From positions 48,349-112,348 of the forward strand of contig CAVOVA010000008.1 in assembly GCA_963699725.1 (NCBI GenBank): DNA of 64,000 nt. The letters are read 5' to 3'. Position 1 is the first letter of the stretch; each line of letters opens with the position of its first letter. Below the pieces are notes generated by a model. That model saw nothing but the letters and a program-made list of their open reading frames with translations. It was not told the DNA's origin and did not search any database. This document shows, one piece after another, positions 22,714 through 42,005 of the stretch. This stretch comes from an uncultured Thermoleophilia bacterium. Its GTDB lineage: Bacteria > Actinomycetota > Thermoleophilia > UBA2241. The position numbers were made by a program, and so were the translations under genes.

Positions 22714-22815
22714 CGCTACCACCGTGGCGTCAAGCTGCGGGCGCTTCTGTCGCCCTGGGTGCGTAGGCAGCCAGGGCGACAGAGGCGATCTGCCGGCTGC
22801 AACCGCTTCTTAGGC
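22714..22815 (-). repeat. attC site with partly eroded cores
   Basis: CGCTACC ACCGTGGCGTCAAGCTGCGGGCG .. internal palindrome CTGTCGCCCTGG/CCAGGGCGACAG .. GGCTGCAACCGCTT CTTAGGC; the methyltransferase TAA stop lies in the right core. Confidence 0.5.
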
Positions 22816-23589
22816 AGCCGACACGGTACCTGCGCCTCCCCCGGCGCGATGCCTGAAGACGTAGATCGCCCAGCCGACAGTGTCTCGGCCCCACCGGAGG
22901 TAAGCTGCCTTGTTCCTTGCCACCCGCTCACCCACGTCCACCAGGTCCGGATCATCCGGATGGGCGCGAGCGTACTCGGCCGTCGCGTACCATTGAAGGC
23001 CCTCGTATCTGTCCCAATCGTCCTTGCTGCTCACGAAGGTGTGAACGAGTTCCAGACCTCGCTGGTCGCCCGCTTCAACGTTGGAGACGTGAGTGCCGAA
23101 GTCCTCCCTCGTCAACCCCGAGGAGTGCAAGTAGCTCTCTGGTGGCTCCTGCAGCCAATAGGGTTCGCCTACGATCACCCAGCCGCCAGGCTCGACCATT
23201 CTGGCCAACGCATCCAAGGTTCCGGCGTGCCCGCCGAAGACCCAACTGGCGCCGATACAGGCGGCGAGAGTGAAGCTGTCTGATTCGCCGGTGCGGAAGT
23301 CGGCGCCGTCCATCTGCGTGAAGGTCGCCTTCGCGTTCGGCACCCGTTCCTTCACGCTCCGCTTCGCGTCGGCGATGAAGAATGGAGAGATGTCGATGCC
23401 CAGCACACGAACGCCGTAGGCTTCGGCCAAGCGGATCAGGAACTCGCCCTTTCCACAGGCTATGTCAATCGCACTCGCGTCGGCCGAGAGCCGGACGAGC
23501 TCGACGAGACGCGCGAGCTTCTCTTCGCTCGTCGGGTTGCACACGATGTGCTCACGGTGAGTGATGTCGTAGAACTTCCGCATGTCCAT
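22810..23589 (-). CDS. class I SAM-dependent methyltransferase
   Basis: AIDIACGKGEFLIRLAEAYG.RVLGIDISP motif I / post-I; 259 aa. Confidence 0.8.
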   Translation of the reverse strand: MDMRKFYDITHREHIVCNPTSEEKLARLVELVRLSADASAIDIACGKGEFLIRLAEAYGVRVLGIDISPFFIADAKRSVKERVPNAKATFTQMDGADFRTGESDSFTLAACIGASWVFGGHAGTLDALARMVEPGGWVIVGEPYWLQEPPESYLHSSGLTREDFGTHVSNVEAGDQRGLELVHTFVSSKDDWDRYEGLQWYATAEYARAHPDDPDLVDVGERVARNKAAYLRWGRDTVGWAIYVFRHRAGGGAGTVSAA

Positions 23590-23610
23590 GGCGTGGCTCT
23601 CTATCTGTCA

Positions 23611-23693
23611 GGCGTCCGGGCGTTGAGTTGCGCCCGCCGACCACGAAGGATATCGCAGATCTTCTGGTCGTCTGCTCAAACGCCTTGTTGCGC
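23611..23693 (-). repeat. possible eroded attC
   Basis: GGCGTCC GGGCGTTGAG..GCCGACCA ... CTTCTGGTCGTCTGCTCAAACGCCTT GTTGCGC; the right arm resembles family B, the left arm is only partly complementary. Confidence 0.3.
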
Positions 23694-23858
23694 GTCGGGC
23701 CACACGCCGTGCCGACCAAGGCGCTCGAGGAGCTCGCAAACCAGCAGCCGGGGTTGCGATTCCCCGCTGCCCGATGGACGCTTCATCGTCTACGGCTGCG
23801 CTTCGTCGGTCCCCCCTGGTGCGAGCAGCAGGGCGGCGGCGAGAGAGTGCCTCACCGT

Positions 23859-24494
23859 CTAGCCAAGCCGAATCGAAGCCGGGACTGTCCAAGGCCGCAG
23901 GACATCACATCGGCTGAGCGGCACGAGACCCAGCCGGACGTTGTCGACGGCCTGTCGGCCCAGGTTGAACTCCCGCAGCGGGACAAGGATCTCACGCAGC
24001 TCCTGGGGGTTGCCCGCCGCAGTGGGCAGCGCGACGGCGAGGTGGGGCAGGAAGGTGCTCAGGTCCTCGTCGGGCAGGAGGCGATGGGCCAGCTCGGCCA
24101 GGTGTCCTCTGTCGCCTTCCGCCTCGGCCACGACCGCATTGTGGAAGCAGTTCAGTCGTGGGAAGTCGATGGTGAAGGTGCCCAAGTTGCGCAGCGCCTC
24201 GCGCCCCCGCTCCACCCATTCCTCCGTCGCTTCGGTCGGCCAGGACATCGCCCACCCAAGGGAGCCTAGCCAGAGGTGCTGCAGGTGCACCGGATAGGGT
24301 CGCAGCCAGTCGACCGGGCGAAGGCATCGTTGGAGCGCTTCCACTGCGGGCCACAACGCAGAGTCGAGGGGGATGAACCAGCCTGCCAGGAGACACGGCG
24401 ACTCGGGAAACTGGTCGGTGAACGCCTCCAGCGGTTCGTCGCGCTGCAGGAAGTGGAGCCAGCTCGCCTCGAAGCTCGTGAAGAGCTCACCCAT
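23859..24494 (-). CDS. hypothetical protein (weak 2H-phosphoesterase-like H-x-x-x pairs)
   Basis: 211-aa ORF with good codon bias. VHLQHLWLG and FLPHLAVAL loosely recall the two H-x-[TS]-x motifs of the 2H fold, but the T/S positions are not conserved. Confidence 0.5.
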   Translation of the reverse strand: MGELFTSFEASWLHFLQRDEPLEAFTDQFPESPCLLAGWFIPLDSALWPAVEALQRCLRPVDWLRPYPVHLQHLWLGSLGWAMSWPTEATEEWVERGREALRNLGTFTIDFPRLNCFHNAVVAEAEGDRGHLAELAHRLLPDEDLSTFLPHLAVALPTAAGNPQELREILVPLREFNLGRQAVDNVRLGLVPLSRCDVLRPWTVPASIRLG

Positions 24495-24496
24495 GT

Positions 24497-24616
24497 TCAG
24501 GCCGCGCTTCCACGACGACCTTTCCTGGCGGCCTGCGCAGCCTGTCCATCACCGGTTGCGTGCGGGGTCAGAAGGCTGATCGCGCCCGCCACCGTCGCTG
24601 CCAAGATCAGCACCAC
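24497..24616 (-). CDS. 39-aa hydrophobic peptide (below ORF-track cutoff)
   Basis: AAGGAGACA then GTG: VVLILAATVAGAISLLTPHATGDGQAAQAARKGRRGSAA; stop is 2 nt before the next ATG (24494). Confidence 0.35.
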   Translation of the reverse strand: MVLILAATVAGAISLLTPHATGDGQAAQAARKGRRGSAA

Positions 24617-24646
24617 TGTCTCCTTCTGCCCGGAGAGGATGCGGCC

Positions 24647-24736
24647 GCCCAACGTACCGCGGACAAGCTGCGAGCGCGCCGATCGCCGATGACACGGTCG
24701 GCGCTGCGGCGAGCCAGCTTCATCCACTTGTTCGAC
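24647..24736 (-). repeat. attC site
   Basis: GCCCAAC GTACCGCGGACAAGCTGCGAGCGCGCCGATCG ... GCTGCGGCGAGCCAGCTTCATCCACTT GTTCGAC. Confidence 0.85.
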
Positions 24737-24747
24737 AAGAGCCGCTA

Positions 24748-24939
24748 TCAGCCGGGCAAGACACGCTTATGGCCGACCATCTCGCCGTCCTCGAGCGGCA
24801 TCTCGACTACCTCGCGCAGGTTCTGCTGTAGTTCGTCGCTGTCGGCGCCCTGGCTGTGAGCGCCGGGCCGGCCGGGCACGTCGCCGATCAGCACGTTGGT
24901 GTCGGGGTCACGCTCTACGACGGAGTCGTACGACCGCAT
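24748..24939 (-). CDS. hicB: HicB-like antitoxin domain protein (solo)
   Basis: YDSVVERDPDTNVLIGDVPGRPGAHSQGADSDELQQNLREVVEM fits the HicB N-domain pattern (Y.v.ie.D.....ig.vP.lPGc.SqG.t.eE...N.rEai). No hicA lies in the cassette. Confidence 0.65.
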   Translation of the reverse strand: MRSYDSVVERDPDTNVLIGDVPGRPGAHSQGADSDELQQNLREVVEMPLEDGEMVGHKRVLPG

Positions 24940-24962
24940 TGTCGCGCCTCCTTGCGACCCTT

Positions 24963-25403
24963 CTACGATAGCCCAGCCTCAAGCGAGGACGCCAGACCTA
25001 CCGGCGAACGTCCACCAAACGCGCCGCGCATGAGCAGACGCCGCTGACCCGCCACCGTGCGGCAGACCTTCTGGCGTTCTCCTCGATGCGCTTGTTGGTC
25101 ACGCCTCACGTCCTCCGGCTCTCCGGGGAGCTGGGCTGAGCGCCAAGCCGCGACCACCCACACCGAGTCGTCCTTCACGCGGGAGAAGAAACGGTAGGGC
25201 GGCACGACGACCTCGCGGAACGGCAGGTCGGGGAACTCCGGCAGCACGCGCCCCGACTCCGGGTAGTCGGCGAGGCGGGAGAGCGAGTCGGCCGCACGGT
25301 CGCGCAGGCTACACGCCGCGGCCGGGTCGTCGGCGACGACGTTGGCGAGCGCCGCGAGGAACTGCTCGCGGGCGGCGGGCGTGAAGAGGACCCTGCGGCT
25401 CAC
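24963..25403 (-). CDS. parE: ParE/RelE-family toxin with ~45-aa extension through its attC
   Basis: GTG 25403 overlaps the antitoxin stop (GTGA). FTPAAREQF..L..YPESGRVLPEFPDLPFREVVVPPYRFFSRVKDDSVWVVAAWRSAQ. The ORF has no stop until 24963, past attC 25014..25100. Confidence 0.7.
   Translation of the reverse strand: MSRRVLFTPAAREQFLAALANVVADDPAAACSLRDRAADSLSRLADYPESGRVLPEFPDLPFREVVVPPYRFFSRVKDDSVWVVAAWRSAQLPGEPEDVRRDQQAHRGERQKVCRTVAGQRRLLMRGAFGGRSPVGLASSLEAGLS
25014..25100 (-). repeat. attC site (family B)
   Basis: ACCAAAC GCGCCGCGCATGAGCAGACGCCGCTGACC ... GGCAGACCTTCTGGCGTTCTCCTCGATGCGCTT GTTGGTC. Confidence 0.85.
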
Positions 25404-25675
25404 GGCCTGCTGAGCAGCTCGTCCGCCTCGGCGAGCACGTCGGCGAGGGCGTGGCCGGAGCCGGCCTCGATCTCGGCCTCGCCGCGGGCGAGCAGGCGCA
25501 GGATCTCGAGCTCGTGCTGCGTGCGCTCGTAGGCCCTCGCGCTGACCAAGACGGCGGCGGCACGCCCGCGCTGGGTGATGAACACCGGCTGCTGCGTGTC
25601 GGCCGCGCGCTTGATCACGCCCGAGGCGTCCTGACGCAGGTCGGTGATGGGCACGATGTCCGGTACTGATGCCAT
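25400..25675 (-). CDS. Phd/YefM-family antitoxin
   Basis: VPITDLRQDASGVIKRAADTQQPVFITQRGRAAAVLVS.RAYE.....LEILRLLARGE. Confidence 0.8.
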   Translation of the reverse strand: MASVPDIVPITDLRQDASGVIKRAADTQQPVFITQRGRAAAVLVSARAYERTQHELEILRLLARGEAEIEAGSGHALADVLAEADELLSRP

Positions 25676-25744
25676 TAACGCTACCTCCTATGCTACTGGC
25701 AACGGTACCACTAACGTACCCTCGCGACCAGTGGAGAAGGCTGT

Positions 25745-25834
25745 ACCCAACGCACCGCGCGTAGCCTGCGCGGGCGACGGTACCCGATGACAACATCGGC
25801 GTAGCGGTGAGTCAGGTTGATCCGCTTGTTAGCC
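25745..25834 (-). repeat. attC site (family C)
   Basis: ACCCAAC GCACCGCGCGTAGCCTGCGCGGGCGACGG ... GCGGTGAGTCAGGTTGATCCGCTT GTTAGCC; the GNAT TAA stop lies in the right core. Confidence 0.85.
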
Positions 25835-26353
25835 GTCCCCACCGTCCACAAGCGCGAAGACGACCCGGTCGAGGAGTTGGCCGTCTTTGGAGACGCTCGC
25901 GCGGGAGACACCCTCGCGCGCGAAGCCGCACTTCTCAAGGACGCGCATCGAAGCGGGGTTACGGGCAAGAACGGCGGCTTCCAGCCGGCAGAGGCCGAAA
26001 CGCTTCATGGCGTACGGGACGACGGCGCGCACCGCTTCGGTCATGATGCCGCGGCCCCAGAAGGGCTCGGCAAGCCAGTAGCCGAGGTCTGCCGAACGCG
26101 CGAACACCCCCTCGCCGAGCTCGACGCCAATGCCGCCGGCGGCCGCACCGTCGAGCTCGATGGCCCAGTGCGTCGGCTCGGGCATCTCGGCCAGACGGGC
26201 GAACCACTGGTCGGCGTCTGACTCGGTGTAGGGCGAGGCGAAACGATGAGTCATGTTGCGTGAGACCTCGCGGTTGTCGGCCGCGCGTACCAGGGCCTCC
26301 CGGTCGCCGGGCGACCAGTCGCGCACGATGCAGTGCTCGCATTCGAGTCTCAT
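25829..26353 (-). CDS. GNAT acetyltransferase (RimJ/RimL-like)
   Basis: LGYWLAEPFWGRGIMTEAVRAVV.YA......RLEA.V...N.AS.RVLEK.GF..EG. Confidence 0.8.
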   Translation of the reverse strand: MRLECEHCIVRDWSPGDREALVRAADNREVSRNMTHRFASPYTESDADQWFARLAEMPEPTHWAIELDGAAAGGIGVELGEGVFARSADLGYWLAEPFWGRGIMTEAVRAVVPYAMKRFGLCRLEAAVLARNPASMRVLEKCGFAREGVSRASVSKDGQLLDRVVFALVDGGDG

Positions 26354-26369
26354 CTCGACGCCATGGTAC

Positions 26370-26456
26370 GGCTAACGCATCGCGGATAGGCTGCGAGCGC
26401 CGCGGCTTCGACTTGCCGCGAGGCTTTGGCGAGCCAGCTTGATCCGCTTGTCAGCC
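26370..26456 (-). repeat. attC site (family A')
   Basis: GGCTAAC GCATCGCGGATAGGCTGCGAGCGCCGCGGC ... GCGAGGCTTTGGCGAGCCAGCTTGATCCGCTT GTCAGCC (right core GTC). Confidence 0.8.
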
Positions 26457-26460
26457 GCAC

Positions 26461-26757
26461 TCACCGGCGACCCTCCCAGTAGAACGGCCGGCGTCTCTGA
26501 TGGGCGACCGCGAGGATGCGAACCTCATCGCTGCGCAACGAGTAGAGGAGCGCGTAAGGGAACGTGTGCAGGAGGCGCCGACGCACCCCGTGACGGAGCG
26601 GCTCCGCCGCCTCAGGGACTTTCTCGACCTGCGTGAGCGCGTGCTCGAGCTCAGCGAGGAAGACGTCGCCAAGGCCGGGGCTCTCGAGGTCTTAGAAGTC
26701 GACCGCCTCGTTCAGCTCACGCTCCGCCGCAGCGTCGAAGCGCAGCGCGCGGCTCAT
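26461..26757 (-). pseudogene. parE: ParE/RelE-family toxin with in-frame TAA (26692-26694)
   Basis: ATG 26757 overlaps the antitoxin stop (ATGA). MSRALRFDAAAERELNEAVDF*DLESPGLGDVFLAELEHALTQV...RRRLLHTFPYALLYSLRSDEVRILAVAHQRRRPFYW. Confidence 0.7.
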
Positions 26758-27014
26758 CCGCGGCGGGCACGCGCCCTGGCGAGGACCTCGTCGGCCGGAT
26801 GGGTGGCAGCGCCCGCGTCGATCTCGGCGTCGCGGCGCGCCGCCTCAGCGAGCCAGAGTTGCTCGACCTCGGCCTCGGAGAGTTCGTCGAGGCTGTCGAG
26901 CAGCCGGTGGGCGAGACGGGCCCGGCCCTGGGGGTCGAGGGTGAGCGCCTCGCGCATGAGTTCGTCGATGGTCACGCCTGCCACCTCGCTTTCACATCGC
27001 GCCGACACCTGCAT
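26754..27014 (-). CDS. addiction-module antitoxin (TIGR02574-like component)
   Basis: TIDELMREALTLDPQGRARLAHRLLDSLDE.SEAEVEQLWLAEAARRDAEIDAG; start ATG 27014 or an internal GTG. Confidence 0.65.
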   Translation of the reverse strand: MQVSARCESEVAGVTIDELMREALTLDPQGRARLAHRLLDSLDELSEAEVEQLWLAEAARRDAEIDAGAATHPADEVLARARARRG

Positions 27015-27061
27015 TGTACCGCCGCGCCCAGACGGCGGACAGATAGCAATGGGGGTGTTGC

Positions 27062-27150
27062 GGCCAGCGCACCGCGGATAGGCTGCGAGCGCGCTGGCCT
27101 CCCGTGAGGCCGCCGGCGCCGCACGAGTAAGCCTGATCCGCTCATTGGGC
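27062..27150 (-). repeat. attC site (family A, both cores mutated)
   Basis: GGCCAGC GCACCGCGGATAGGCTGCGAGCGCGCTGGCCTCCCGTGAGGCCGCCGGCGCC..GTAAGCCTGATCCGCTC ATTGGGC. Confidence 0.65.
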
Positions 27151-27157
27151 GACCCGC

Positions 27158-27460
27158 TCACGTCGGCAGGTCGGGCAATCGCTCACTGCGCCAGACGCGC
27201 ACCGCGCGGACCCGGTCCTGGTCGAAGCGATAGACGAGCCGGAAGGGCGGGTGGATGATCTCGCGCAGCTGCACGAGCCCGAACTCCGGCACCATGCGGC
27301 CGCTCTCGGGGAAGTCGGCGAGCCGTTCGACGTGCGCGACGATCTCGCGCAGCAGGCGCTCACCGACCTCGGGGGCCTGTTGGCCGCCGTACCAGGAGCG
27401 GATCGCCTCGAGGTCCGCGACGGCGGAGGCGGCGAAGCTGATGCGCGCTCGGGCCGGCAC
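27158..27460 (-). CDS. parE: ParE/RelE-family toxin
   Basis: ISFAASAVADLEAIRSWY......VGERLLREIVAHVERLADFPESGRMVPEFG...LREIIHPPFRLVYRFDQDRVRAVRVWRSER. Confidence 0.8.
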   Translation of the reverse strand: MPARARISFAASAVADLEAIRSWYGGQQAPEVGERLLREIVAHVERLADFPESGRMVPEFGLVQLREIIHPPFRLVYRFDQDRVRAVRVWRSERLPDLPT

Positions 27461-27462
27461 GC

Positions 27463-27738
27463 TTACTCGAGGCCGAGCCGCTGCTTGACGTCGCCGAGGT
27501 CGAGCTCGCGCCCCGCCTCGAGGTCGACGATGCCTTCGACGACGGCGCGCAGGAAGGAGCGCTCCTCGGCCTCGGCCTCGTACTCCGTGAGCGCCTGCAC
27601 GACGGCGACGCCCCGGCCGCGACTGGTGAGCAGCACCGGCCGGTGGGTCTCGTCGACCTGGCGCACCACCCGACCAGGGTTGGCTTTCAGGTCGCTGAGC
27701 GGCACGACATCCTCCGAGAACTTGGGTGCGCTACGCAA
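27463..27738 (-). CDS. Phd/YefM-family antitoxin
   Basis: VVPLSDLKANPGRVVRQVDETHRPVLLTSRGRGVAVVQ.L.EYE; sits 2 nt upstream of parE. Confidence 0.8.
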   Translation of the reverse strand: MRSAPKFSEDVVPLSDLKANPGRVVRQVDETHRPVLLTSRGRGVAVVQALTEYEAEAEERSFLRAVVEGIVDLEAGRELDLGDVKQRLGLE

Positions 27739-27843
27739 GTGGAACCTCCCGCCTTAAGTCCAGTGAACGGTACCGAATATAGCACCACTTAACAGTATCG
27801 TGAAGAGGGCCGTCCAACTGCGCTGGCGCTGGGATTAGGGTTC

Positions 27844-27930
27844 GCCCAACGCACCGCGCATAACCTGCGCGCCACGCCGTTGGAGTCTATCTCGGCGCTC
27901 CGGCGCTTCAGGTTGATGTGCTTGCTGGAC
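27844..27930 (-). repeat. attC site (family C, right core GCT)
   Basis: GCCCAAC GCACCGCGCATAACCTGCGCGCC ... GGCGCTTCAGGTTGATGTGCTT GCTGGAC; the GNAT 3' end overlaps it by ~23 nt. Confidence 0.7.
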
Positions 27931-28384
27931 GGCCGACCGGCTTGCGCATCGCCACGCGAGGCAGCGAGTCCAGCCCACGCGCGGCCTCTGCCTCTAGCCG
28001 CGCCGCCAGCTCGACACCGAGGTCCTCGGGTCGCACCACTCCGTAGCCGAGACGCCTGTAGAAAGGCCCGTTCCAAGGTACGTCACGGTAGGTCGTCAGA
28101 TTCACCTCGGCGAAGCCGTGGGCGACGGCCCAACGCTCGATATCCCGCACGAGGGCCGCCCCGACGCCGCGCCTTCCGTGCTCGGGACGGACGTCGAGTT
28201 CTTTGAGGTGAAGACACTCGCCCCATGGTTCGAAGAGCCCGAAGCCCACGCAAGCGCCGCTCGAAGAGAGCGCGACCCGCAGATGGCCTGAAGCCTGGGC
28301 ATCGGCAAACACCGAAAGCGGCGTCGTCTCCGTGAACAGCGTCTGTGGGACGTCGTACCCGCGAAAGCGCGAGGCCGCCGCCAA
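27908..28384 (-). CDS. GNAT family N-acetyltransferase (start uncertain)
   Basis: LHLKELDVRPEHGRRGVGAALVRDIERWAVAHGF.EV.LTTY..VPWNGPFYRRLGY. The frame stays open upstream to the attC core (..VALESFDYTIDAAALCHLEDLPLIEL) with no ATG/GTG/TTG. Confidence 0.7.
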   Translation of the reverse strand: MAAASRFRGYDVPQTLFTETTPLSVFADAQASGHLRVALSSSGACVGFGLFEPWGECLHLKELDVRPEHGRRGVGAALVRDIERWAVAHGFAEVNLTTYRDVPWNGPFYRRLGYGVVRPEDLGVELAARLEAEAARGLDSLPRVAMRKPVGRPASTST

Positions 28385-28470
28385 CTCGATGAGAGGGAGA
28401 TCCTCGAGGTGGCATAGCGCGGCAGCGTCGATGGTGTAGTCAAATGACTCCAGCGCGACTCCCGTGGTCC

Positions 28471-28558
28471 GTCCAACGTGGTGCGCATCAGCAGACGCCG
28501 ATCAACCGCTCTTCCGCAGTCTACCGTTGCAGCGTTCTGCTGGATGCGCTTGTTAGGC
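28471..28558 (-). repeat. attC site (family B)
   Basis: GTCCAAC GTGGTGCGCATCAGCAGACGCCG ... GCAGCGTTCTGCTGGATGCGCTT GTTAGGC. Confidence 0.85.
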
Positions 28559-28559
28559 C

Positions 28560-29021
28560 TCAGATCCAGCGGCGGACCCGCTTCGAGTAGTCGCGGTAGT
28601 CCTGGCCGAGCGAGACCGACAAGACCAGCTCCTCCGGCCGTATCTGGAAACGGGCGATGTAGGCGACGAAGAGCGCGGACACCAGGGCGGCTGCCGGACT
28701 GGCCAACAGCACCGACCAGCCCAAGAGCACGATCTCCATTCCAAGGTAGGTCGGGTTGCGACTGAACCGGTAGACCCCGGAGGTGACTAGAGCCGTGGTG
28801 CGTCCGGGCTCGGTCGGGTGCCACGTCGTACCTGCGCGACTGAGTGCGACGCGGGCCGCGACTATGAGCGCCGTGCCGACAGCAATGAGAATCAACGCGA
28901 CCGGGCCTCGAAGTGTCTCTGGGACGCCGAATCCCGCAGTCACCCGGGAGGCAAGCCACATCAGCCCTGCAGCCGCCACCCAGACCACGTCGGGCGGAAT
29001 CCTCAGCTCAAGACTCGACAT
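28560..29021 (-). CDS. isoprenylcysteine carboxyl methyltransferase (ICMT/PEMT) family membrane protein
   Basis: Trimmed to MSSLELRIPP (AGAGGAG upstream); LVTSGVYRFSRNPTYLGMEIVLLGW signature; four TM segments. Confidence 0.8.
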   Translation of the reverse strand: MSSLELRIPPDVVWVAAAGLMWLASRVTAGFGVPETLRGPVALILIAVGTALIVAARVALSRAGTTWHPTEPGRTTALVTSGVYRFSRNPTYLGMEIVLLGWSVLLASPAAALVSALFVAYIARFQIRPEELVLSVSLGQDYRDYSKRVRRWI

Positions 29022-35616: not shown

Positions 35617-35706
35617 GGCGAACGCACCGCGGATAAGCTGCGAGCGCGACGGCCTCCTGTGAGGCCGCCGGCGCTGCGGCGAGTCAGCTTCATCCGCTTG
35701 TTCGAA
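35617..35706 (-). repeat. attC site (family A)
   Basis: GGCGAAC GCACCGCGGATAAGCTGCGAGCGCGACGGCCTCCTGTGAGGCCGCCGGCGCTGCGGCGAGTCAGCTTCATCCGCTT GTTCGAA. Confidence 0.9.
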
Positions 35707-35755
35707 GCACCGCCACTACCCTTGCAGCCCCTGCACCGCACCTCGTACAAGTGGT

Positions 35756-35914: not shown

Positions 35915-35940
35915 GACTGACGCCCCCTCAGGTCGGTTGC

Positions 35941-36030
35941 TTCGAACGCACCGTGGATAAGCTGCGAGCGCTCACGCCACGAAGTGTACCGTAGAGCTGC
36001 CGGCGAGCCAGCTTGATCCGCTTGTTAGAG
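35941..36030 (-). repeat. attC site (family A-like)
   Basis: TTCGAAC GCACCGTGGATAAGCTGCGAGCGCTCACGCC ... GCTGCCGGCGAGCCAGCTTGATCCGCTT GTTAGAG. Confidence 0.9.
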
Positions 36031-36040
36031 CTGCCGACGC

Positions 36041-36454
36041 TCATCGCGCCTGCGTCGCGCTTGGTCGGGGCCGCGTCAGCAACTGCAGGAGGGAGAGCGC
36101 AACGAGGCACAGCGGGGCAACCATGAGCTCGCCGAACCCCCAGGTGACGAGGTAGTAGAGGCCGATCGCGCTGAGGACGAGGCCGCAGGCCAGGAGGATG
36201 CTCCAGGTCACGCTGCCGCCGCGCCTCGTGAGCGCGAGCACGACCGCAGCCGCGTAGGCGACCGCCGGCGCTAGGCTGATGGCGAGGTTGATGATGTAGT
36301 ACCGCAACGACTGGTCTGCGACGCCGAGCTCCCACACCGCCATGCGGACGAGGACGACCACCGCGGCCGCGAGGACGACCACCAGCAGCCAGCGCAAAGC
36401 GACCAACGCCCCTGACGCGCCGGCTCCGACCCTGTCTCCTTGTGCCTGCATCAC
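36041..36454 (-). CDS. hypothetical polytopic membrane protein (cassette ORF)
   Basis: 137 aa, four hydrophobic helices (LVALRWLLVVVLAAAVVVLV.., YYIINLAISLAPAVAYAAAVVLAL..). Confidence 0.6.
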   Translation of the reverse strand: MMQAQGDRVGAGASGALVALRWLLVVVLAAAVVVLVRMAVWELGVADQSLRYYIINLAISLAPAVAYAAAVVLALTRRGGSVTWSILLACGLVLSAIGLYYLVTWGFGELMVAPLCLVALSLLQLLTRPRPSATQAR

Positions 36455-36471
36455 GCCCCCAGCGCTGCTAG

Positions 36472-36558
36472 CTCTAACGCACCGCGCATGAGCAGACGCG
36501 GCTGACCTGCCGGTTCACGGCAGACCTTCTGGCGTTCTGCTCGATGCGCTTGTTGGAC
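36472..36558 (-). repeat. attC site (family B)
   Basis: CTCTAAC GCACCGCGCATGAGCAGACGCGGCTGACCTGCCGGTTCACGGCAGACCTTCTGGCGTTCTGCTCGATGCGCTT GTTGGAC. Confidence 0.9.
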
Positions 36559-36569
36559 CGCACCGTGAT

Positions 36570-37763
36570 TCATGTCGAGTGTAGTGGCGCTCGCTTCGAT
36601 GCGAGCCTGTCGAGCAGCGCGACACCGTACTCGGGCCCCGGCAGAGCGGCGATCTCATCCCGAAGGCGCACCGCGGGCCCTCGGAAGCCGTCGTCGGCAA
36701 GCACGCGCGACACTGCTGCGCGTACCATCTCCGGCGTTGCGCTCAGAGCGTCGAGCACCTCCGCGACTCCCAGCGCCCGGCATCGCGCCGCATTGAGCGG
36801 CTGGTCTGCCCCGATTGGGATCAACACCATCGGTAGCCCGTGCGCCAAGGCTCCCAGGACGCTGCCCGAGCCGGCGTGCGACACAACCAGGTCACAGTGA
36901 GGCAGGAGCGCCGACTGAGGCACGAACCGCTCGATGTGAACGTTGGCCGCCTGCCGACCCAACTCATCCGGGTCGAGGTTTCGTCCCACCGTGACGATGA
37001 GGTTGATCGGCAGGTCGCGGAGTCCCGCCAGCACGCGCTGGAATAGGTCGCCGGACTCCAGGTTGTAGACCGTGCCGAGCGTGAGGTACACGGTCGGCGC
37101 GCGGTGTCGGCGGGCCAGCCACGGGAGATCGGCTTCGTTGCTTGTCGCGTCGAAGCTGACCAGGCGCACGTGATGTGCCGTGGGCGGCGAAGGAAGGTCG
37201 GGGTCGCGGAGGCTCGGCGGAAAGGGCGTGAGAAGGAGATAGCGGCTGAGCATGGCGAGGCTGGGATCGCGGGGCAGACCGTGTTCAGCGCGGACTTCAT
37301 CCAGCGGGCCGGCGACGAACTCGTTGCGCACGAAGGCGCCGGTGGCGCTGACGAGCACCGTCGCGTACGGCAGTCCGAGCCGCTCGGCGACGAGCATCGC
37401 GCCGAAGTCAAATTCCTCACACACGAGGAGGTCGGGTCGCCACTCGGCGCACAGCGAGAGGATGTCGGCTGTCCGCTCGCGCGCGATCCGATGACCGAAG
37501 CCGCTACCCACATCACGCATGTCCTGGTCCAGATTCACCTCGGCCAGCGGCAACCGTTCTGGCGTGAGGCCGGCATCTGATCCGGCGGGGAATGCCAGGA
37601 ATCCGGCGGCCTCGACCTGGGGGGTCATCCAGGGGCGGCCTGCGAAGGCGACTGAGTGACGCTCCGTCTCTGCCGCGCGGGCCAGGGGGATGAGCGGCTC
37701 CAAGTGCCCGCTGCCACCCGCGAAGGTGAAGAGCATGCGCTTGGGGATTGGTCTTCCGTGCAT
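36570..37763 (-). CDS. GT1-family UDP-glycosyltransferase (macrolide/MGT-like)
   Basis: FAGGSGHLEPLIPLARA N-terminus and C-terminal donor motif VPQSALLPHCDLVVSHAGSGSVLGALAHGLPMVLIPIGADQPLNA. Confidence 0.8.
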   Translation of the reverse strand: MHGRPIPKRMLFTFAGGSGHLEPLIPLARAAETERHSVAFAGRPWMTPQVEAAGFLAFPAGSDAGLTPERLPLAEVNLDQDMRDVGSGFGHRIARERTADILSLCAEWRPDLLVCEEFDFGAMLVAERLGLPYATVLVSATGAFVRNEFVAGPLDEVRAEHGLPRDPSLAMLSRYLLLTPFPPSLRDPDLPSPPTAHHVRLVSFDATSNEADLPWLARRHRAPTVYLTLGTVYNLESGDLFQRVLAGLRDLPINLIVTVGRNLDPDELGRQAANVHIERFVPQSALLPHCDLVVSHAGSGSVLGALAHGLPMVLIPIGADQPLNAARCRALGVAEVLDALSATPEMVRAAVSRVLADDGFRGPAVRLRDEIAALPGPEYGVALLDRLASKRAPLHST

Positions 37764-37786
37764 CCGAACACCGCGCCTTCGTGGCG

Positions 37787-37876
37787 GTCTAACGCCCGGC
37801 GCATAAGCTGCGAGCGCCTACGCTACGGCCTTCCACGTAGAGCTTACTGCGAGCCAGCTTGATGCGCTTGTTAGGC
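37787..37876 (-). repeat. attC site (family A-like)
   Basis: GTCTAAC GCCCGGCGCATAAGCTGCGAGCGCCTACGC ... AGCTTACTGCGAGCCAGCTTGATGCGCTT GTTAGGC. Confidence 0.9.
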
Positions 37877-37890
37877 GCGAACAACTCCGG

Positions 37891-38460
37891 TCACCCTTCG
37901 TCGAGAGAGGCTGGGGCGGGCGACGCGGCGGCGGGCGGCTGCGGAGCTGGCGCAGCGGCCTCGTCTCGCCAGAGGCGGCGGCTGAGCCGCTCCGAGAAGA
38001 AGACGAGGAGCAGGCCCACGCCCAGCTCGACGAGCGGGTAGACGCCGCCGTGGAGCCAGTTGATCCAGTGCCACGAGACCTGCGTCGTCATGCCGAAGCC
38101 GTCGCCGCTCGACGACTCGACGACGCCGTAGGTCGCCGCCTGGCACAGCCCGGGGACGGCGAGCGCGACGAGGACGACCCCGGCGACCAGCAGCGCGAGG
38201 CGCAGGACGATGCGCGCCTGCGGCGGCGAGCCCGGCGGTGAGTCGTCGAACCAGCGGGCGGCGAGGCGGCCGCCCCACAGGACGAGCGCGAGGCCGACGA
38301 GTAGCTGAACGAGCACCGTCGCCCAGGCCAGCAGTGTGACCACCAGCGGGGAGTCGGGGCCTTCGAGGGACCACAACATGGCCGTCTGGATGAGGCCGAG
38401 GGCGCCGACCATGACGAACAGGCCGACACACTTGAGCGCGACTGCGGCAAGGCCTCTCAC
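37891..38460 (-). CDS. hypothetical polytopic membrane protein with Ala/Pro-rich tail (cassette ORF)
   Basis: 189 aa, GTG start, 4-5 TM helices; no family recognised. Confidence 0.55.
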   Translation of the reverse strand: MRGLAAVALKCVGLFVMVGALGLIQTAMLWSLEGPDSPLVVTLLAWATVLVQLLVGLALVLWGGRLAARWFDDSPPGSPPQARIVLRLALLVAGVVLVALAVPGLCQAATYGVVESSSGDGFGMTTQVSWHWINWLHGGVYPLVELGVGLLLVFFSERLSRRLWRDEAAAPAPQPPAAASPAPASLDEG

Positions 38461-38474
38461 TGCGCCCCCTCTGC

Positions 38475-38564
38475 GCCTAACGCACCGCGCGTAACCTGCG
38501 CGGGCTGCGGTCCCAAGTTACTACAGGAACCGTCGGCCGCGTCAGGTTGACGCGCTTGTTGGGC
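38475..38564 (-). repeat. attC site (family C)
   Basis: GCCTAAC GCACCGCGCGTAACCTGCGCGGGCTGCGGTCCCAAGTTACTACAGGAACCGTCGGCCGCGTCAGGTTGACGCGCTT GTTGGGC. Confidence 0.9.
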
Positions 38565-38577
38565 ATGGGTTTCACCC

Positions 38578-39642
38578 TCACTGGACCACGGCAATGTCTC
38601 CGGCGTAGGGCATCGCTGCCGAGTCGAGTTGTGCCTGACGCTGCCAGGTCCGCCCGCCGTCGTTAGTGCCGTAGACGACGCAGCCGCTCGACTCGTCGTT
38701 CACCCGCCAGCCGGTGCTCGCGTCGGCGAAGGCGAGGCGGGACCCGCCCTGGCCGCGGATGCGCAGCCAGTGGGCGCCGCCGTCCACGCTGCGGTAGAGG
38801 TCGCCGCCGGCGAGAGCCCAGACGTGATGGTCATCAGTAGCGCAGAGGTCGTCGATGCCGACGCCGGTCGTCTCCAGCTGGCGCTTCCACGTGCGACCGC
38901 CGTCGCTGCTCACGAGCACGGCGCCGGCGACTTCGTCGGGCTGGGGCTGGGCGGTGATGCTGCCCGCCACCCAGACGCGGTCAGTGGCCGCGGCGACCTG
39001 GCCGAACGACAAGGCGCTGCGTGCGGGGACCTCGCGGACCTGCACGGTCCAGTGCAGGCCGCCGTCGCTCGTGCCGAGGACCTGCCAGCCGGCGGCAGCC
39101 CAACCGCGTGAGGCATCGGCGAAGTCGATGGCGTGGACCCGGGCCGGGGACGACCCGGGGGCGAGGAACGCCTGGGTCCTCTCCCAGTCGCCACCGCCGT
39201 CCACGGTCCGCAGTGCGGCGCCGGCGCCGACCGTCCAGGCTTCATCCGGAGCCAGGCAGGCAACCGAGGTCAGGGATCGCTCCGAGCCCTCGAGGCCTGA
39301 GGTCTGCTCCTGCCAGTTTGCACCGCCGTCCGACGTGCAGAGGATGGTGCCGTCGGTGCCGACCGCGAAGCCCGAGCGGTCGGACGCGAAGTCTGCGGCC
39401 AAGAGGGTCGCCTGCGTACCGGAGGTACTCTGTTGCCAGTGCTCGCCGTCGATGGTGAGGAAGACGGCTCCCGCGTCACCCACCACGCACGCGAGCGGGG
39501 TCAGCGCCGCCTGCGAGGAGGTCGGATTCGGGGCGGGAGGAGGCGCCTCGCCGCCGCAGGCCGAGAGCCCGACAGCAGCGGCAGCGGTGAACAGCAGCGC
39601 GAATGACGCGAGCCAACGAGCAGTGACGAGACGAGCCCCCAT
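38578..39642 (-). CDS. BNR/Asp-box repeat beta-propeller lipoprotein (Ycf48/sialidase-like fold)
   Basis: Trimmed to MGARLVTARWL..LSAC lipobox. Six Asp-boxes: TSDGGANW, TVDGGGDW, TSDGGLHW, SSDGGRTW, SVDGGAHW, TNDGGRTW. Confidence 0.8.
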   Translation of the reverse strand: MGARLVTARWLASFALLFTAAAAVGLSACGGEAPPPAPNPTSSQAALTPLACVVGDAGAVFLTIDGEHWQQSTSGTQATLLAADFASDRSGFAVGTDGTILCTSDGGANWQEQTSGLEGSERSLTSVACLAPDEAWTVGAGAALRTVDGGGDWERTQAFLAPGSSPARVHAIDFADASRGWAAAGWQVLGTSDGGLHWTVQVREVPARSALSFGQVAAATDRVWVAGSITAQPQPDEVAGAVLVSSDGGRTWKRQLETTGVGIDDLCATDDHHVWALAGGDLYRSVDGGAHWLRIRGQGGSRLAFADASTGWRVNDESSGCVVYGTNDGGRTWQRQAQLDSAAMPYAGDIAVVQ

Positions 39643-39654
39643 GACGCCCCCTAT

Positions 39655-39741
39655 GCCCAACGCACCGCGGATAAGCTGCGAGCGCCGCGGCTCTTCTTAG
39701 CCGCGACGCTTTGGCGAGCCAGCTTGATTCGCTTGTTGGGC
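39655..39741 (-). repeat. attC site (family A')
   Basis: GCCCAAC GCACCGCGGATAAGCTGCGAGCGCCGCGGCTCTT ... GCCGCGACGCTTTGGCGAGCCAGCTTGATTCGCTT GTTGGGC. Confidence 0.9.
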
Positions 39742-39763
39742 CGCAACCCCAGCATCGCTTCTC

Positions 39764-40165
39764 CTACGGAACCGGCGTCGGGGTGCCAGTGCTGTCCGAG
39801 AGCTTGGTCAAAGTCGTGGTGATGGGACTGCTCAGGCCCTCGCCGGATACGACGAAGTCGATGTGCTCGCCCGAGTCGTCGATGGCGAGGTCCATCTGCC
39901 CCTCCACGCTGCTGGTGACCAGCCCGGTGCCGCGCAGGTGACTCCCCTGGCGGTCGAGCATGGCGATCGACATGTAGTTCGACCCGCCGGGCGACCCCTG
40001 GAACAGCGTGTGCTTGCCGTCCTGCTCCGCGATGACGATGCGAACGTGGTCTCCCGATTCCATGCGCCATGTTCCGACGAAGGGGTCGGTCTGCGCGGGG
40101 GAGCCGCCACACGCTGCGAGCACCACCACCGCTCCGACGACCAACGCCATGACCACCGTCTTCAC
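39764..40165 (-). CDS. hypothetical lipoprotein (cassette ORF)
   Basis: GTG 40165: VKTVVMALVVGAVVVLAAC lipobox; lipocalin-sized soluble domain; the track start (TTG 40186) lies inside the attC core. Confidence 0.6.
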   Translation of the reverse strand: MKTVVMALVVGAVVVLAACGGSPAQTDPFVGTWRMESGDHVRIVIAEQDGKHTLFQGSPGGSNYMSIAMLDRQGSHLRGTGLVTSSVEGQMDLAIDDSGEHIDFVVSGEGLSSPITTTLTKLSDSTGTPTPVP

Positions 40166-40180
40166 GTTCGCCCCCTGTCG

Positions 40181-40270
40181 GCCCAACGCACCGCGCGTAA
40201 CCTGCGCGGGCTGCGGTCTGAGGTTACTACAGGAACCGTTGGGCGCGTCAGGTTGACGCGCTTGTTAGCC
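40181..40270 (-). repeat. attC site (family C)
   Basis: GCCCAAC GCACCGCGCGTAACCTGCGCGGGCTGCGGTCTGAGGTTACTACAGGAACCGTTGGGCGCGTCAGGTTGACGCGCTT GTTAGCC; the TAA stop of the upstream ORF lies in the right core. Confidence 0.9.
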
Positions 40271-40666
40271 AGTGGCGCCGACATTCTCCTCTGCGCAGTA
40301 GGCTCGAACGGCAGGCACGAAGAGCAGAACGGCTGCGACGAAGATGCTGGTCACGCCCACCGTGATGAAGTAGGCCCCGAACCGGAGTTCCCCGGACAAG
40401 AGGTCGATCAGGCCGAAGATCAGAGCCGGCGAGCCGAGCACGGAGAGGAGGCCGAGCAGCGAGCGAGCCCAGTTGGCGCCACGGTAGAGGAAGACGCAGA
40501 GTGCCAGGCTGACCAGGAGGCCGATCAGGGAGCCGGCAAGACCTCCCATGGGGGAGCCGGCGTGGAAGATGCGAGAGATGGGCCACTCCGCCAACACAAC
40601 GACGATCACCGCGATGACCCACACGCGACCTGCGTCCTTCCGTGGCATCCTCTGCACCCTCTGCAT
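40265..40666 (-). CDS. hypothetical polytopic membrane protein (cassette ORF)
   Basis: Trimmed to MQRVQRMPRK (or ATG 40648); four TM helices (VWVIAVIVVVLAEW.., LAGSLIGLLVSLALCVFLY..). Confidence 0.6.
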   Translation of the reverse strand: MQRVQRMPRKDAGRVWVIAVIVVVLAEWPISRIFHAGSPMGGLAGSLIGLLVSLALCVFLYRGANWARSLLGLLSVLGSPALIFGLIDLLSGELRFGAYFITVGVTSIFVAAVLLFVPAVRAYCAEENVGATG

Positions 40667-40668
40667 CT

Positions 40669-40758
40669 GGCTAACGCACCGCGGATAAGCTGCGAGCGCG
40701 CCGGCCTCCCGTGAGGCCGCCGGCGCTGCGGCGAGACAGCTTGATCCGCATGTTAGGA
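40669..40758 (-). repeat. attC site (family A)
   Basis: GGCTAAC GCACCGCGGATAAGCTGCGAGCGCGCCGGCCTCCCGTGAGGCCGCCGGCGCTGCGGCGAGACAGCTTGATCCGCAT GTTAGGA; the methyltransferase TAA stop lies in the right core. Confidence 0.9.
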
Positions 40759-41517
40759 GGCTCTCCGGCCCACGTAGGCGAACCCGGTGAGGGCGTAGAA
40801 GTAGCGACCCTCGGAGTCGAGCTCGCGCTGCTCGGCGAGGAAGCGCTCGCACTCTTCGGCGGTGACCAGGCCATCCCCGACCAGTTCATGGAAGTCGTGG
40901 GCGCGCTCGTGGCCGTAGGCGCCGGGCGCGAAGCGGGTCTCGATGAGCGTGCGGGAGACGACCTCGCCGTGGAAAACGCCGCCGGCGCTGCACAGGCCCC
41001 AGAGCCGCCTCCCGAGCCAGGGGTCAACACAGGCCATCCACGCCTGGCGGCGGTCGGCGAAGCCCTGTACGAGGCGGCGCACGAGGGTACGATCGCTGCC
41101 GTCGAAGAGCTGCGTATCCCAGTCCCAGTGGGCGAGGACGACGGTGCCGCCGGAGCGCACGACCCGGGCCAGCTCGGCGAGGAGCGCGGCCGGCTCGCGC
41201 AGACACTCGAGCAGGTTGTGCGAGTAGGCGCATTCGAAGGCGCCGTCGGCGAACGGCAAGCCTTGGTCGAGGTCGGCGAGGACGAACTTCGCGCGCCGGT
41301 CGGCGCCGGCCGCAGCCCTGGCGGCCGCGAGCGCGTCCGGCGAGCAGTCAACGCCGACGAAACGCGAGCCGGGATCGGGACGGCGGGCCGCGAGCTCGAT
41401 GAGGTCGGGACCCGCGCCGCAGCCGAGGTCGAGGAACGTCAGCGGCTCGGCCTGCGGTACGAACGACAGCAGCCACTCGCGATGCGCGCCTACCGACTCC
41501 GGTACGGCTGTCACCAA
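40753..41517 (-). CDS. class I SAM-dependent methyltransferase
   Basis: TTG 41517 / GTG 41514 after AGGAGG, which is formed at the attC R' junction. FLDLGCGAGPDLIELA..FVGVDCSP..ADLD..PFADGAFECAYSHNLL. Confidence 0.8.
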   Translation of the reverse strand: MVTAVPESVGAHREWLLSFVPQAEPLTFLDLGCGAGPDLIELAARRPDPGSRFVGVDCSPDALAAARAAAGADRRAKFVLADLDQGLPFADGAFECAYSHNLLECLREPAALLAELARVVRSGGTVVLAHWDWDTQLFDGSDRTLVRRLVQGFADRRQAWMACVDPWLGRRLWGLCSAGGVFHGEVVSRTLIETRFAPGAYGHERAHDFHELVGDGLVTAEECERFLAEQRELDSEGRYFYALTGFAYVGRRAS

Positions 41518-41526
41518 CCCCTGTCC

Positions 41527-41616
41527 TCCTAACGCACCGCGGATAAGCTGCGAGCGTGCCGGCCTCCCGTGAGGCCGCCGGCGCCGCGGCGAGTCAGCTT
41601 GATCCGCTTGTTGGGC
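41527..41616 (-). repeat. attC site (family A), first in the array
   Basis: TCCTAAC GCACCGCGGATAAGCTGCGAGCGTGCCGGCCTCCCGTGAGGCCGCCGGCGCCGCGGCGAGTCAGCTTGATCCGCTT GTTGGGC. Confidence 0.9.
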
Positions 41617-41662
41617 ACCCGCGCACATTGAGCCACCGACCCTGATCGGCGCAGGGTGCACC

Positions 41663-41968
41663 TCACTCTTTGACCTTGCCGTCGACCGAGTAGCTGACGC
41701 CTGGATGCTCAGCCAGCATGCGGTCAACCGTCTTCAGGTCGAGATACGGCACGGTGTAGGTCGAGCCGTCGGTGAGCTTGACCGAGAGGATCTGGTAGGC
41801 AGTCGTCGCCGCTACGGATGTGACCTTGCCGCTCGTGAGGTCGGCCGTGAAGCTCTTCGGACCGGAGAACACCGGCCCGGCGGAAGTGGTCGTGGAGGAG
41901 CATGCAGTGACCGCCGCAAGCATGAGCAGTAGGGCCGCGAGCGCCAAGCCCAGGTACCGCATCCTCAT
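41663..41968 (-). CDS. hypothetical small lipoprotein, first cassette ORF
   Basis: Trimmed to MRMRYLGLALAALLLMLAAVTAC (lipobox); 101 aa. The upstream part of the track ORF lies in the candidate attI. Confidence 0.6.
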   Translation of the reverse strand: MRMRYLGLALAALLLMLAAVTACSSTTTSAGPVFSGPKSFTADLTSGKVTSVAATTAYQILSVKLTDGSTYTVPYLDLKTVDRMLAEHPGVSYSVDGKVKE

Positions 41969-42005
41969 GACGTCCCCCCAACGTTCGGACTTCGGTGTGC
42001 CTAAC

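Follow-up and report, generated by a model that had tools for sequence, protein, structure and literature searches.

Sedentary chromosomal integrons (SCIs) such as the Vibrio cholerae superintegron hold more than 19 relatively homogeneous attC sites at a fixed chromosomal location, and their cassettes, mostly of small or unknown cargo and including several toxin-antitoxin (TA) cassettes, differ in content between close relatives. Classically, the integrase gene intI is divergent from the array and attI lies upstream of intI. Another layout, called 'inverted integrase', has been described for Treponema (PMC3607928; PMC4889954): in the chromosomal integrons of Treponema denticola and Treponema spp. 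the attC sites lie downstream of intI and are co-oriented with it. According to surveys of complete genomes carried out with IntegronFinder, Actinobacteria are without complete integrons (PMC4889954, PMC9024848), a permafrost study of 2026 speaks of the "virtual absence" of integrons from Actinomycetota (PMC13323075), and our literature searches found, in the collection of papers that they covered, no description of integrons in Thermoleophilia or Actinomycetota. The present analysis concerns a 64-kb stretch of DNA from an uncultured Thermoleophilia bacterium (contig CAVOVA010000008.1 of assembly GCA_963699725.1), hereafter called the window. It contains a gene-cassette array of about 36 kb, from a soil actinobacterium, with an intact integrase gene adjoining the attC sites, and we are confident that this is a complete SCI of the inverted-integrase layout located in a Thermoleophilia (Actinomycetota) chromosome. 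Elements of this kind are fully known, and mechanistically this is an ordinary integron; the lineage and its host appear to be undescribed.

The layout of the window and of its 20 closest relatives is thus that of the Treponema integrons, but the window belongs to another phylum, has a GC content of about 70% and possesses a different attC family. Its nearest IntI relatives are environmental metagenome-assembled genomes (MAGs) of many phyla, at 55-70% identity, and not Spirochaetes; furthermore, its array displays a clear proximal-to-distal decay and the insertion of an operon linked to an insertion sequence (IS). The resemblance to the V. cholerae superintegron and other SCIs extends to all the features listed above except the position of intI and attI. 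The window array is smaller, about 35-40 cassettes against about 180 in the V. cholerae superintegron, and it differs also in having no PADLOC defence family, since for the 10 orphan cassette proteins submitted PADLOC returned ankyrin-type similarity only and no defence system. As to class 1 integrons, the window IntI is 54% identical to IntI1 and the attC architecture is close enough for a covariance model trained on the window to match class 1 sites (see below). But the Tn402/Tn21 context and the 3' conserved segment are lacking, no recognised resistance cassette is found among the cargo, and the orientation of intI is the opposite.

attC sites and the footprint of circular cassettes

A preliminary description of this DNA, made from the letters alone, proposed 25 well-formed attC sites between 24647 and 41616, and our results bear it out. 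Repeat finding between 20 and 46 kb revealed families of repeats of 29-118 nt, recurring every 0.3-1.5 kb, which read on the plus strand as xxxAACGCACCGCGGATAAGCTG ... CAGCTTGATCCGCTTGTTxxx. Read on the minus strand, a site is RYYYAAC-AAGCGG-ATCAAGCTG-ACT ... CAGCTTAT-CCGCGGTGC-GTTRRRY, and the order R''-L''...L'-R' is that of the top strand of attC sites. The 25 sites (24647..41616) are 52-98 nt long (median 90), with a start-to-start spacing of 283-1524 nt (median 690), and their cores are well kept: AAC is present in 22 of them and GTT in 24.

The sites were aligned with MAFFT. RNAalifold, run on this alignment, found the L-box helix only, with compensatory changes in 5 of its 10 pairs. When a structure of three helices was drawn manually (R box, L box and, inside them, a helix of 2 bp; all but the L box had to be specified by hand), 90.5% of the cells were paired, as compared to 26-37% if the 3' partners were slid by 1-3 columns; changes on both sides affected 10 pairs and 45 cells, a cell count reached by none of 500 shuffles. 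The covariation is also visible as sequence subfamilies (ATCAAGCTG/CAGCTTAT, ATCAACCTG/CAGGTTAT, ATCGAGCAG/CTGCTCAT and TTCCAGCAG/CAGCTGAA). In all 25 sites the L box is broken, in the same column, by one unpaired base, which is a top-strand C in 23 of them, and a 3-nt bulge that follows the L box is found only on the arm carrying this base. Counted on the plus strand from the 3' end of the GTTRRRY box, a numbering convention that we assumed, the unpaired base and the bulge fall at G16 and T23, the same two positions at which Nivina et al. 2016 (PMC5027507) place the extrahelical bases of attC-aadA7. This makes the plus strand the recombinogenic one (bottom strand), and the cassettes are encoded by the minus strand, in agreement with the directions of the open reading frames (ORFs). 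The repeats therefore display the whole attC architecture: R'' and R' cores, imperfect palindrome, L box, extrahelical bases, central spacer and terminal structure.

A covariance model, R1, was built from the 25 sites and used, with filters off, to search the whole window. With scores of 44-102 bits (E 1e-9 to 1e-24), the training sites are far above what chance would give. In total 33 sites were significant, 8 of which are outside the training set; all are on the minus strand and downstream of intI, and no significant match was obtained in the 21 kb beyond the integrase (43-64 kb). On three class 1 integrons carried by plasmids of Salmonella, E. coli and Klebsiella, R1 matched nine places, each of them on the coding strand and directly 3' of a gene known as cassette cargo (aadA1, aadA2, two aac(6')-Ib, catB3, arr-3, qacL, a DUF1010 gene and dfrA12); the rest of the 45 kb gave no match, except for one of the same sites on the reverse strand at E 0.55. 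In a Duganella integron, the single match is upstream of intI and on the opposite strand, i.e. the classical divergent layout. These results support both the model and its strand call. R1 replaced an AAC...GTT scan combined with a minimum-free-energy filter, which in DNA of 70% GC gave a handful of sites together with false positives.

A further test, specific to integron cassettes, concerns the way they are joined. Cassettes join between G and TT, and the last bases of a composite attC belong to the next cassette. It follows that R'' has its true partner in the R' tail with which its own cassette begins, and this tail is part of the upstream site. At the four variable positions, 17 of the 25 cassettes show perfect complementarity between R'' and the upstream site's R' tail, and only 2 show it between R'' and the adjacent R' tail of the same site. 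Over 100,000 permutations, the number of perfect matches averaged 2.2 and never exceeded 9. Such a match is what circular cassettes leave behind when they are joined between G and TT; no hairpin repeat family except attC predicts such a pattern.

Integrase, attI and cassette reshuffling among relatives

The integrase gene (42285..43250, minus strand) is intact and encodes a protein of 321 amino acids, which matches TIGR02249 at 466.9 bits (cutoff 265). The protein aligns end to end with VchIntIA (PDB 2A3V; E 2e-93), all the catalytic residues (R, K, HxxR, H and Y) are present, and its IntI-specific insert aligns with that of VchIntIA; the ORF thus codes for an IntI-clade tyrosine recombinase with the IntI-specific additional domain. 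intI is co-oriented with the cassettes, whose array begins about 280 nt past its stop codon. In the window and in its relatives alike, the gene lies on the strand that carries the attC top strands and is transcribed toward attI, as expected for an inverted integrase. This orientation had escaped the preliminary description, as had the distal third of the array and its IS-associated interruption (see next section).

To locate attI, the sequence downstream of intI was aligned for 12 relatives. A block of about 110 nt is conserved 3' of intI in 10 of them and terminates in CTGCAGAAATGCAGTTRGGC (GTTRGGC); past this point the sequences are unrelated and lead into different first cassettes, which defines the boundary of attI. 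In the window, the corresponding region is at 41999..42107 on the minus strand, with the core GTTAGGC at 41999..42005. We take this block as the attI defined by comparison, i.e. the point adjoining intI where cassettes would be inserted, with a crossover predicted between G42005 and T42004; the array limit proposed earlier, 42005, is precisely the G of this crossover.

Established integron biology, from which the following steps are borrowed, suggests how the locus would operate. The plus strand, being the bottom strand of the attC sites, would fold when single-stranded into a hairpin made of the R box, the unpaired central spacer, the L box with its extrahelical G, and a variable loop. Recombination by IntI between two folded attC would excise a circular cassette, and recombination between attC and attI, with a cut between G and TT, would insert it next to the integrase. 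Read in this light, the sequence has new cassettes accumulating near intI (C1-C27, 22.7-42.0 kb, numbered upward from attI) and old ones drifting distally, where their AAC and GTT cores have decayed and the cassettes have turned into fixed genes (6.7-13.4 kb). TA cassettes probably stabilise the array. An event associated with an IS did away with one cassette and with half of the attC belonging to it, and put an 8.9-kb catabolic operon (three MttB and two DAO genes) into the middle of the array. As for expression, cassettes are probably transcribed either from a promoter in the 280-nt spacer between intI and attI or by read-through of intI. An extended -10-like motif, TGTTATCCT, read from the sequence at 42167..42175 on the minus strand, faces the cassettes; its role as the cassette promoter Pc is speculative.

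Comparison with related loci argues that cassettes did move. When species-representative genomes were scanned with IntI, 80 loci were obtained (loci are designated below by L and a number). In 20 related loci R1 gave 152 matches, all downstream of intI and on the same strand, and no match in the 10 kb upstream of intI; the preliminary description had named dispersal of the repeat as the result that would speak against attC sites, and neither in the window nor in the relatives is the repeat dispersed. Inside the arrays, homology is limited to whole cassettes, found at different positions and with breakpoints on attC sites. For instance, C22 (26372-27069) matches L013 and L018, the segment 25082-25744 matches the first cassette of L008 (C24 being common to L002, L006 and L008), C3 (40185-40700) matches L005 at 10 kb into its array, C9 matches L006, and C27 (22729-23607) matches L008 at 13824-14702 and is also present in L081. 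Such cassettes, located at different positions in related genomes, are about 90% identical in nucleotide sequence. Thus the cassette polymorphism that the preliminary description suggested looking for is there, in the form of different or reshuffled cassettes between shared flanks, and at the level of sequence comparison reshuffling between relatives is shown.

In three of the related loci (L002, L003 and L018), the stop codon of intI is separated from the attI block by additional DNA, which codes for a peptide motif, KLKHGIDF, of toxin-like appearance. Another locus, L030 (6357-17436, from a Limnochordia MAG), is unusual in having attC-like matches on both sides of intI, all on the intI strand, which may correspond to two arrays or to a rearrangement.

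Decay, host and chromosomal location

The array does not stop at 22714, the limit first given to it, but continues to about 6.7-8.9 kb. The two sites at this former limit had been called eroded. As sites they are indeed weak: attC 26 (23604..23696, at the end of C26) scores 14.5 bits (E 0.16; 17.5 bits for its L081 homologue), and attC 27 (22714..22812, at the end of C27), in which AAC became AAG and GTT became GGT, is under the reporting limit of R1 in the window. As cassette boundaries they are real, since homology starts and stops there: that with L008 stops at attC 26 and that with L081 breaks at 22720, in attC 27, which aligns along its length to a site of L008 (14613-14721) scoring 34.2 bits. 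All these features, like those described next unless stated otherwise, are on the minus strand.

Beyond attC 27 comes the remnant of a 28th cassette, 116 nt at 22589..22704, which is 77% identical to 32698-32829, the 5' part of the TA cassette C13. Then follows a non-cassette block (14442..22081) encoding, according to Pfam, three MttB-family methyltransferases and two DAO-type FAD oxidoreductases; this block of about 8.9 kb has a core-like GC content of 71.2% and R1 finds no attC inside it. Its MttB proteins are of the trimethylamine/glycine-betaine-type family. On its distal side, a 5'-truncated remnant of an IS4/IS5-like DDE transposase (13785..14315, plus strand; PF01609, 32.4 bits for a cutoff of 23, matched from ORF residue 90) is joined to an attC of which only the 3' half (L'-R') is left, at 13739..13775. 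The half site scores 11.9 bits as a whole site, 30-37 nt of it are 92-100% identical to attC 3' halves of the window and of relatives, and its junction with the transposase coding sequence can be read directly at about 13776-13785. The segment 13739-14315 is thus a deletion junction inside the array. We considered the possibility that the MttB/DAO block is one giant cassette and rejected it, because the block has no attC of its own, because its GC is core-like and because of its ends, a truncated transposase and half an attC distally and a cut cassette remnant proximally.

On the far side of the junction are eight more sites, those found by R1 outside its training set: B1 (13284..13370, match 13281-13373, 64.2 bits), whose cores are intact; B2 (12502..12583, match 12499-12586, 21.5 bits), with eroded cores; B3 (11826..11909, match 11823-11912, 32.7 bits) and B4 (11223..11308, match 11220-11311, 43.4 bits), also eroded; B5 (10666..10750, match 10663-10753, 25.2 bits), where AAC is kept and GTT became GTC; and the eroded B6 (10086..10172, match 10083-10175, 34.7 bits), B7 (9446..9531, match 9443-9534, 25.5 bits) and B8 (8932..9017, match 8929-9020, 38.8 bits). 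Only two of the eight have AAC and one has GTT, in contrast to the proximal sites; AAC was changed to GAC, ATC or GGC, and GTT to GTC, GCC or GGC. The associated cargo consists of three GNATs, a glyoxalase, a membrane protein, DUF1697 and, on the plus strand, DUF1801. Still further, at 6729..8833, four small co-oriented genes without recognisable attC (two orphans, DUF2568 and DUF1801) are probable fossil cassettes; the DUF1801 gene of this region is common to L004 and L082, inside their arrays, at 76% nucleotide identity.

The distal cluster (8.9-13.4 kb), taken alone, would be called a CALIN (attC sites clustered without an integron-integrase) by a 4-kb clustering rule, and rearrangement and IS activity have been proposed as origins of CALINs (PMC4889954). 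Here, the comparison with L081 (GCA_942491475.1) shows otherwise. Its tal-pgi-gnd-zwf flank is 97.9% identical to that of the window and it shares distal cassettes at 90-96%, but it is devoid of 12584-22719 (i.e. the B1 and B2 cassettes, the IS remnant and the MttB/DAO block) and has other cassettes there. The distal cluster is therefore the old tail of the same array, split off by the IS-associated insertion of about 9 kb, rather than an independent CALIN, and the insertion is recent and strain-specific. In this locus, nature provides a clean case of attC sites decaying along an array, and also of the way in which an IS event can detach a cassette block that software would report as a CALIN.

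Several points weigh against our reading of the locus as a complete SCI. The Rfam scan at gathering thresholds gave no match, though this only means that no Rfam family fits. The R1 scores of the distal sites are biased downward, since the model was trained on proximal sites. A scan for sigma-70 consensus promoters and terminators around the intI-attI region gave no match, and in the window a mutated sequence, TGCCGAAAC (42040-42075, minus strand), stands in place of the extended -10-like motif TGnTAnnnT, which relatives keep about 75 nt upstream of the crossover; either the cassette promoter has been lost from the window or the motif is a repeat to which the integrase binds. Several cassettes are pseudogenised (frameshifted peroxiredoxin, TA remnants). 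Present-day activity is a prediction from comparative patterns, in which the occurrence of the same cassettes at other array positions, with breakpoints at attC sites, is indirect evidence of excision and insertion. Finally, the taxon rests on MAG labels, and a locus whose IntI is 88% identical, L075, is labelled delta proteobacterium.

Among the alternatives, the one that survives best holds that the integron is real but now a relic, whose cassettes have ceased to be moved and whose array is turning by decay into ordinary chromosomal genes. The loss of AAC and GTT cores in the distal third, the erosion of attC 26 and 27, the interruption of the array by an IS remnant and an 8.9-kb foreign block, the pseudogene cassettes (AhpC fragment, ParE remnant) and the mutation of a promoter-like motif near attI would all be compatible with it. 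We nevertheless regard it as unlikely: intI is full length and has every catalytic residue, the proximal cores are largely intact, the R''/upstream-R' match would decay fast without recent insertion, and cassettes about 90% identical in nucleotides occupy different positions in relatives.

It is still less probable that the host is not an actinobacterium, owing to wrong MAG labels or mis-binned contigs, and belongs for instance to the Myxococcota. A GC content of about 70% fits several phyla. L075 (1-11062), at the very end of a 968-kb contig, and L007 (IntI 87% identical, labelled Deltaproteobacteria) could be taken in this sense; they may reflect mislabelling, a chimeric contig end or horizontal transfer. 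The closest IntI loci, at 84-90% identity, are nearly all from MAGs that bear one of the labels Thermoleophilia (nine MAGs, submitted by several groups), Actinomycetota (one) and Actinomycetes (one). Several of the related integrons are on contigs of 190-450 kb that share flanking genes at 80-98% amino-acid identity. Moreover, the named homologues among the top 120 matches of the transaldolase are all from Thermoleophilia or Actinomycetota.

The same flanks bear on the location of the element. The integron lies between pntAB and a cupin gene that precedes tal-pgi-gnd-zwf. Six relatives (L002, L005, L006, L008, L009 and L016) share the pntAB flank, with the upstream gene order pntB-pntA-fakA/degV-HEAT-VWA-AAA, at 80-98% amino-acid and 84-94% nucleotide identity, and homology ends at the intI stop codon. 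The tal-pgi-gnd-zwf flank is common to L081 and L082, which were reached via transaldolase homologues; L082 is the same contig as L002 (their overlap is 100% identical), so that one relative has the same two flanks, with 14.7 kb from intI to tal versus 36 kb here. Sedentary integrons have been defined by more than 19 attC sites or by their presence in all genomes of a species (Cury et al. 2016, PMC4889954). The window has 33 model-significant sites, two eroded ones and a half site, and its integron is at a fixed position, as judged from the flanks shared by related genomes. The earlier proposal of a sedentary chromosomal integron rather than a mobile resistance integron is upheld by these data, together with the absence of Tn402/Tn3 genes and of resistance cassettes. 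A mobile integron carried by a transposon, a plasmid or an integrative and conjugative element is very improbable. One IS transposase fragment is present in the array, and intI (42285-43308) is only 83% identical in nucleotides to that of L008 when the adjoining 9.9-kb core flank (43543-53450) is 94% identical; the latter could mean that the platform was exchanged, or else that intI evolves faster than its neighbours. But several species-level relatives have the same core genes on both sides, there are at least 33 attC sites, and neither Tn402/Tn3 (tni) nor conjugation, replication or plasmid genes are found in the 64 kb, the IS fragment being the only such remnant. The two attributes of mobile integrons of classes 1-5, an integrase of IntI1-5 type and linkage to a transposon or plasmid, are both wanting, the class 1-type equivalog model NF011946 giving 352 bits with the window IntI, under its cutoff of 435. 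Lastly, that the repeats are a family of terminator hairpins or of elements akin to repetitive extragenic palindromes (REPs) or miniature inverted-repeat transposable elements (MITEs), next to an integrase by coincidence, can be dismissed for practical purposes: they are GC-rich imperfect palindromes that follow ORFs, as intrinsic terminators and REPs do, but the significant copies are confined to one strand and to one side of intI in the window and 20 loci, R''/upstream-R' complementarity is specific to cassette recombination, R1 recognises bona fide class 1 attC sites, and the consensus scan found neither T-tracts nor terminator matches.

Going beyond the complete SCI of the window, one may ask whether an old lineage of chromosomal integrons, passed on vertically and active to this day, resides at the pntAB/tal locus of Thermoleophilia. 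We consider this a serious possibility, short of a conclusion. If true, no complete sedentary integron of Actinomycetota would have been well documented before these, and the reported absence of integrons from Actinobacteria would reflect the sampling of cultured genomes and not a biological incompatibility. The window would then have kept the whole life history of cassettes, from insertion at attI through core erosion with distance and fixation to an IS-mediated split. The 36-kb array, its intact integrase and the single chromosomal site conserved in several MAGs of Thermoleophilia show that integrons are maintained in at least one actinobacterial class, and the question of why most Actinobacteria lack them now becomes experimentally approachable.

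Cassette cargo and the region upstream of intI

The proximal array proper (24647..42004, minus strand, bounded by the 25 well-formed sites) comprises the cassettes C1-C25, each ending with the attC of the same number. The preliminary description requires correction here as to strands: the minus strand carries the cassette genes and the top strands of the attC sites, and the DUF1254/DUF1214 and peroxiredoxin genes are on the plus strand. The GC content of the array is 67.3%, versus 70-71% in the flanks.

Starting from attI, C1 encodes a lipoprotein (attC 1, 41527..41616, 97.5 bits), C2 an S-adenosylmethionine methyltransferase (attC 2, 40669..40758, 96.5 bits), and C3 and C4 a membrane protein and a lipoprotein (attC 3, 40181..40270, 82.4 bits; attC 4, 39655..39741, 91.0 bits). 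They are followed by a BNR/Ycf48-like lipoprotein in C5 (attC 5, 38475..38564, 82.9 bits), a membrane protein in C6 (attC 6, 37787..37876, 79.0 bits), an EryCIII-like GT1 glycosyltransferase in C7 (attC 7, 36472..36558, 77.2 bits) and small membrane proteins in C8 and C9 (attC 8, 35941..36030, 81.6 bits; attC 9, 35617..35706, 95.1 bits). C10 (attC 10, 34864..34953, 70.5 bits) contains an AhpC/TSA peroxiredoxin gene at 35109-35588, on the plus strand and hence antisense to the cassette direction, which is split into two frames and represents either a pseudogene or a sequencing frameshift. An ankyrin protein is encoded by C11 (attC 11, 34349..34438, 101.7 bits). The intact DUF1254/DUF1214 gene of C12 (33136-34263, plus strand) precedes the divergent, 98-nt attC 12 (32825..32922, 44.4 bits); this gene and the intact distal DUF1801 gene (12070-12465, plus strand) face against the array and would thus need promoters of their own.

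C13 carries parE and an antitoxin gene (attC 13, 32132..32218, 73.1 bits) and C14 a membrane protein gene (attC 14, 31428..31517, 100.3 bits); C15, of 289 bp, has no credible ORF (attC 15, 31145..31229, 74.3 bits). Next come a PIN protein with an antitoxin in C16 (attC 16, 30300..30389, 93.0 bits), a methyltransferase in C17 (attC 17, 29554..29640, 86.6 bits), a SnoaL-like (SnoaL/NTF2) protein in C18, whose attC of 52 nt has a minimal terminal loop (attC 18, 29037..29088, 48.9 bits), and a PEMT/ICMT protein in C19 (attC 19, 28471..28558, 59.8 bits). The three sites that follow have lost the AAC core: attC 20 (27844..27930, 72.5 bits; AAC of R'' changed to AGC) ends C20, without convincing ORF; attC 21 (27062..27150, 74.7 bits; AAC to AAT and GTT to GCT) ends C21, with ParE and Phd; and attC 22 (26370..26456, 85.7 bits; AAC to GAC) ends C22, with an antitoxin and a ParE remnant. 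The remaining cassettes encode a GNAT (C23; attC 23, 25745..25834, 72.5 bits), Phd (C24; attC 24, 25014..25100, 67.6 bits), a HicB-like remnant (C25; attC 25, 24647..24736, 79.6 bits), an orphan protein of 211 amino acids (C26) and a methyltransferase (C27). The cargo types announced earlier are thus recovered by Pfam (three methyltransferases, PEMT/ICMT, GT1, SnoaL/NTF2, ankyrin, DUF1254/DUF1214 and an AhpC/TSA fragment), as are the TA modules and remnants (ParE with antitoxin twice, PIN, Phd, antitoxin with ParE remnant, HicB-like remnant). Of the two GNATs that had been counted in 22714..42005, only one is there; three more belong to the distal cluster.

The region upstream of intI shows two palindromes. 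One, GAACGCC-ATGG-GGCGTTC (43367-43384, minus strand), is perfect and located about 120 nt 5' of intI; it was examined as a candidate for an actinobacterial LexA box (GAAC-N10-GTTC) and set aside, as relatives do not conserve it. The other, GGTTGAC-GTTGGCC-GTCACCC followed by GTTGAAC (43280..43307, minus strand), lies 30-57 nt 5' of the intI start and has no match to the canonical actinobacterial LexA box. Its motif GGGTGACGTTnCCnGTCACCCGTTGAAC is kept in 11 of 12 relatives, even where the upstream gene differs, which makes it a candidate operator or promoter of intI.

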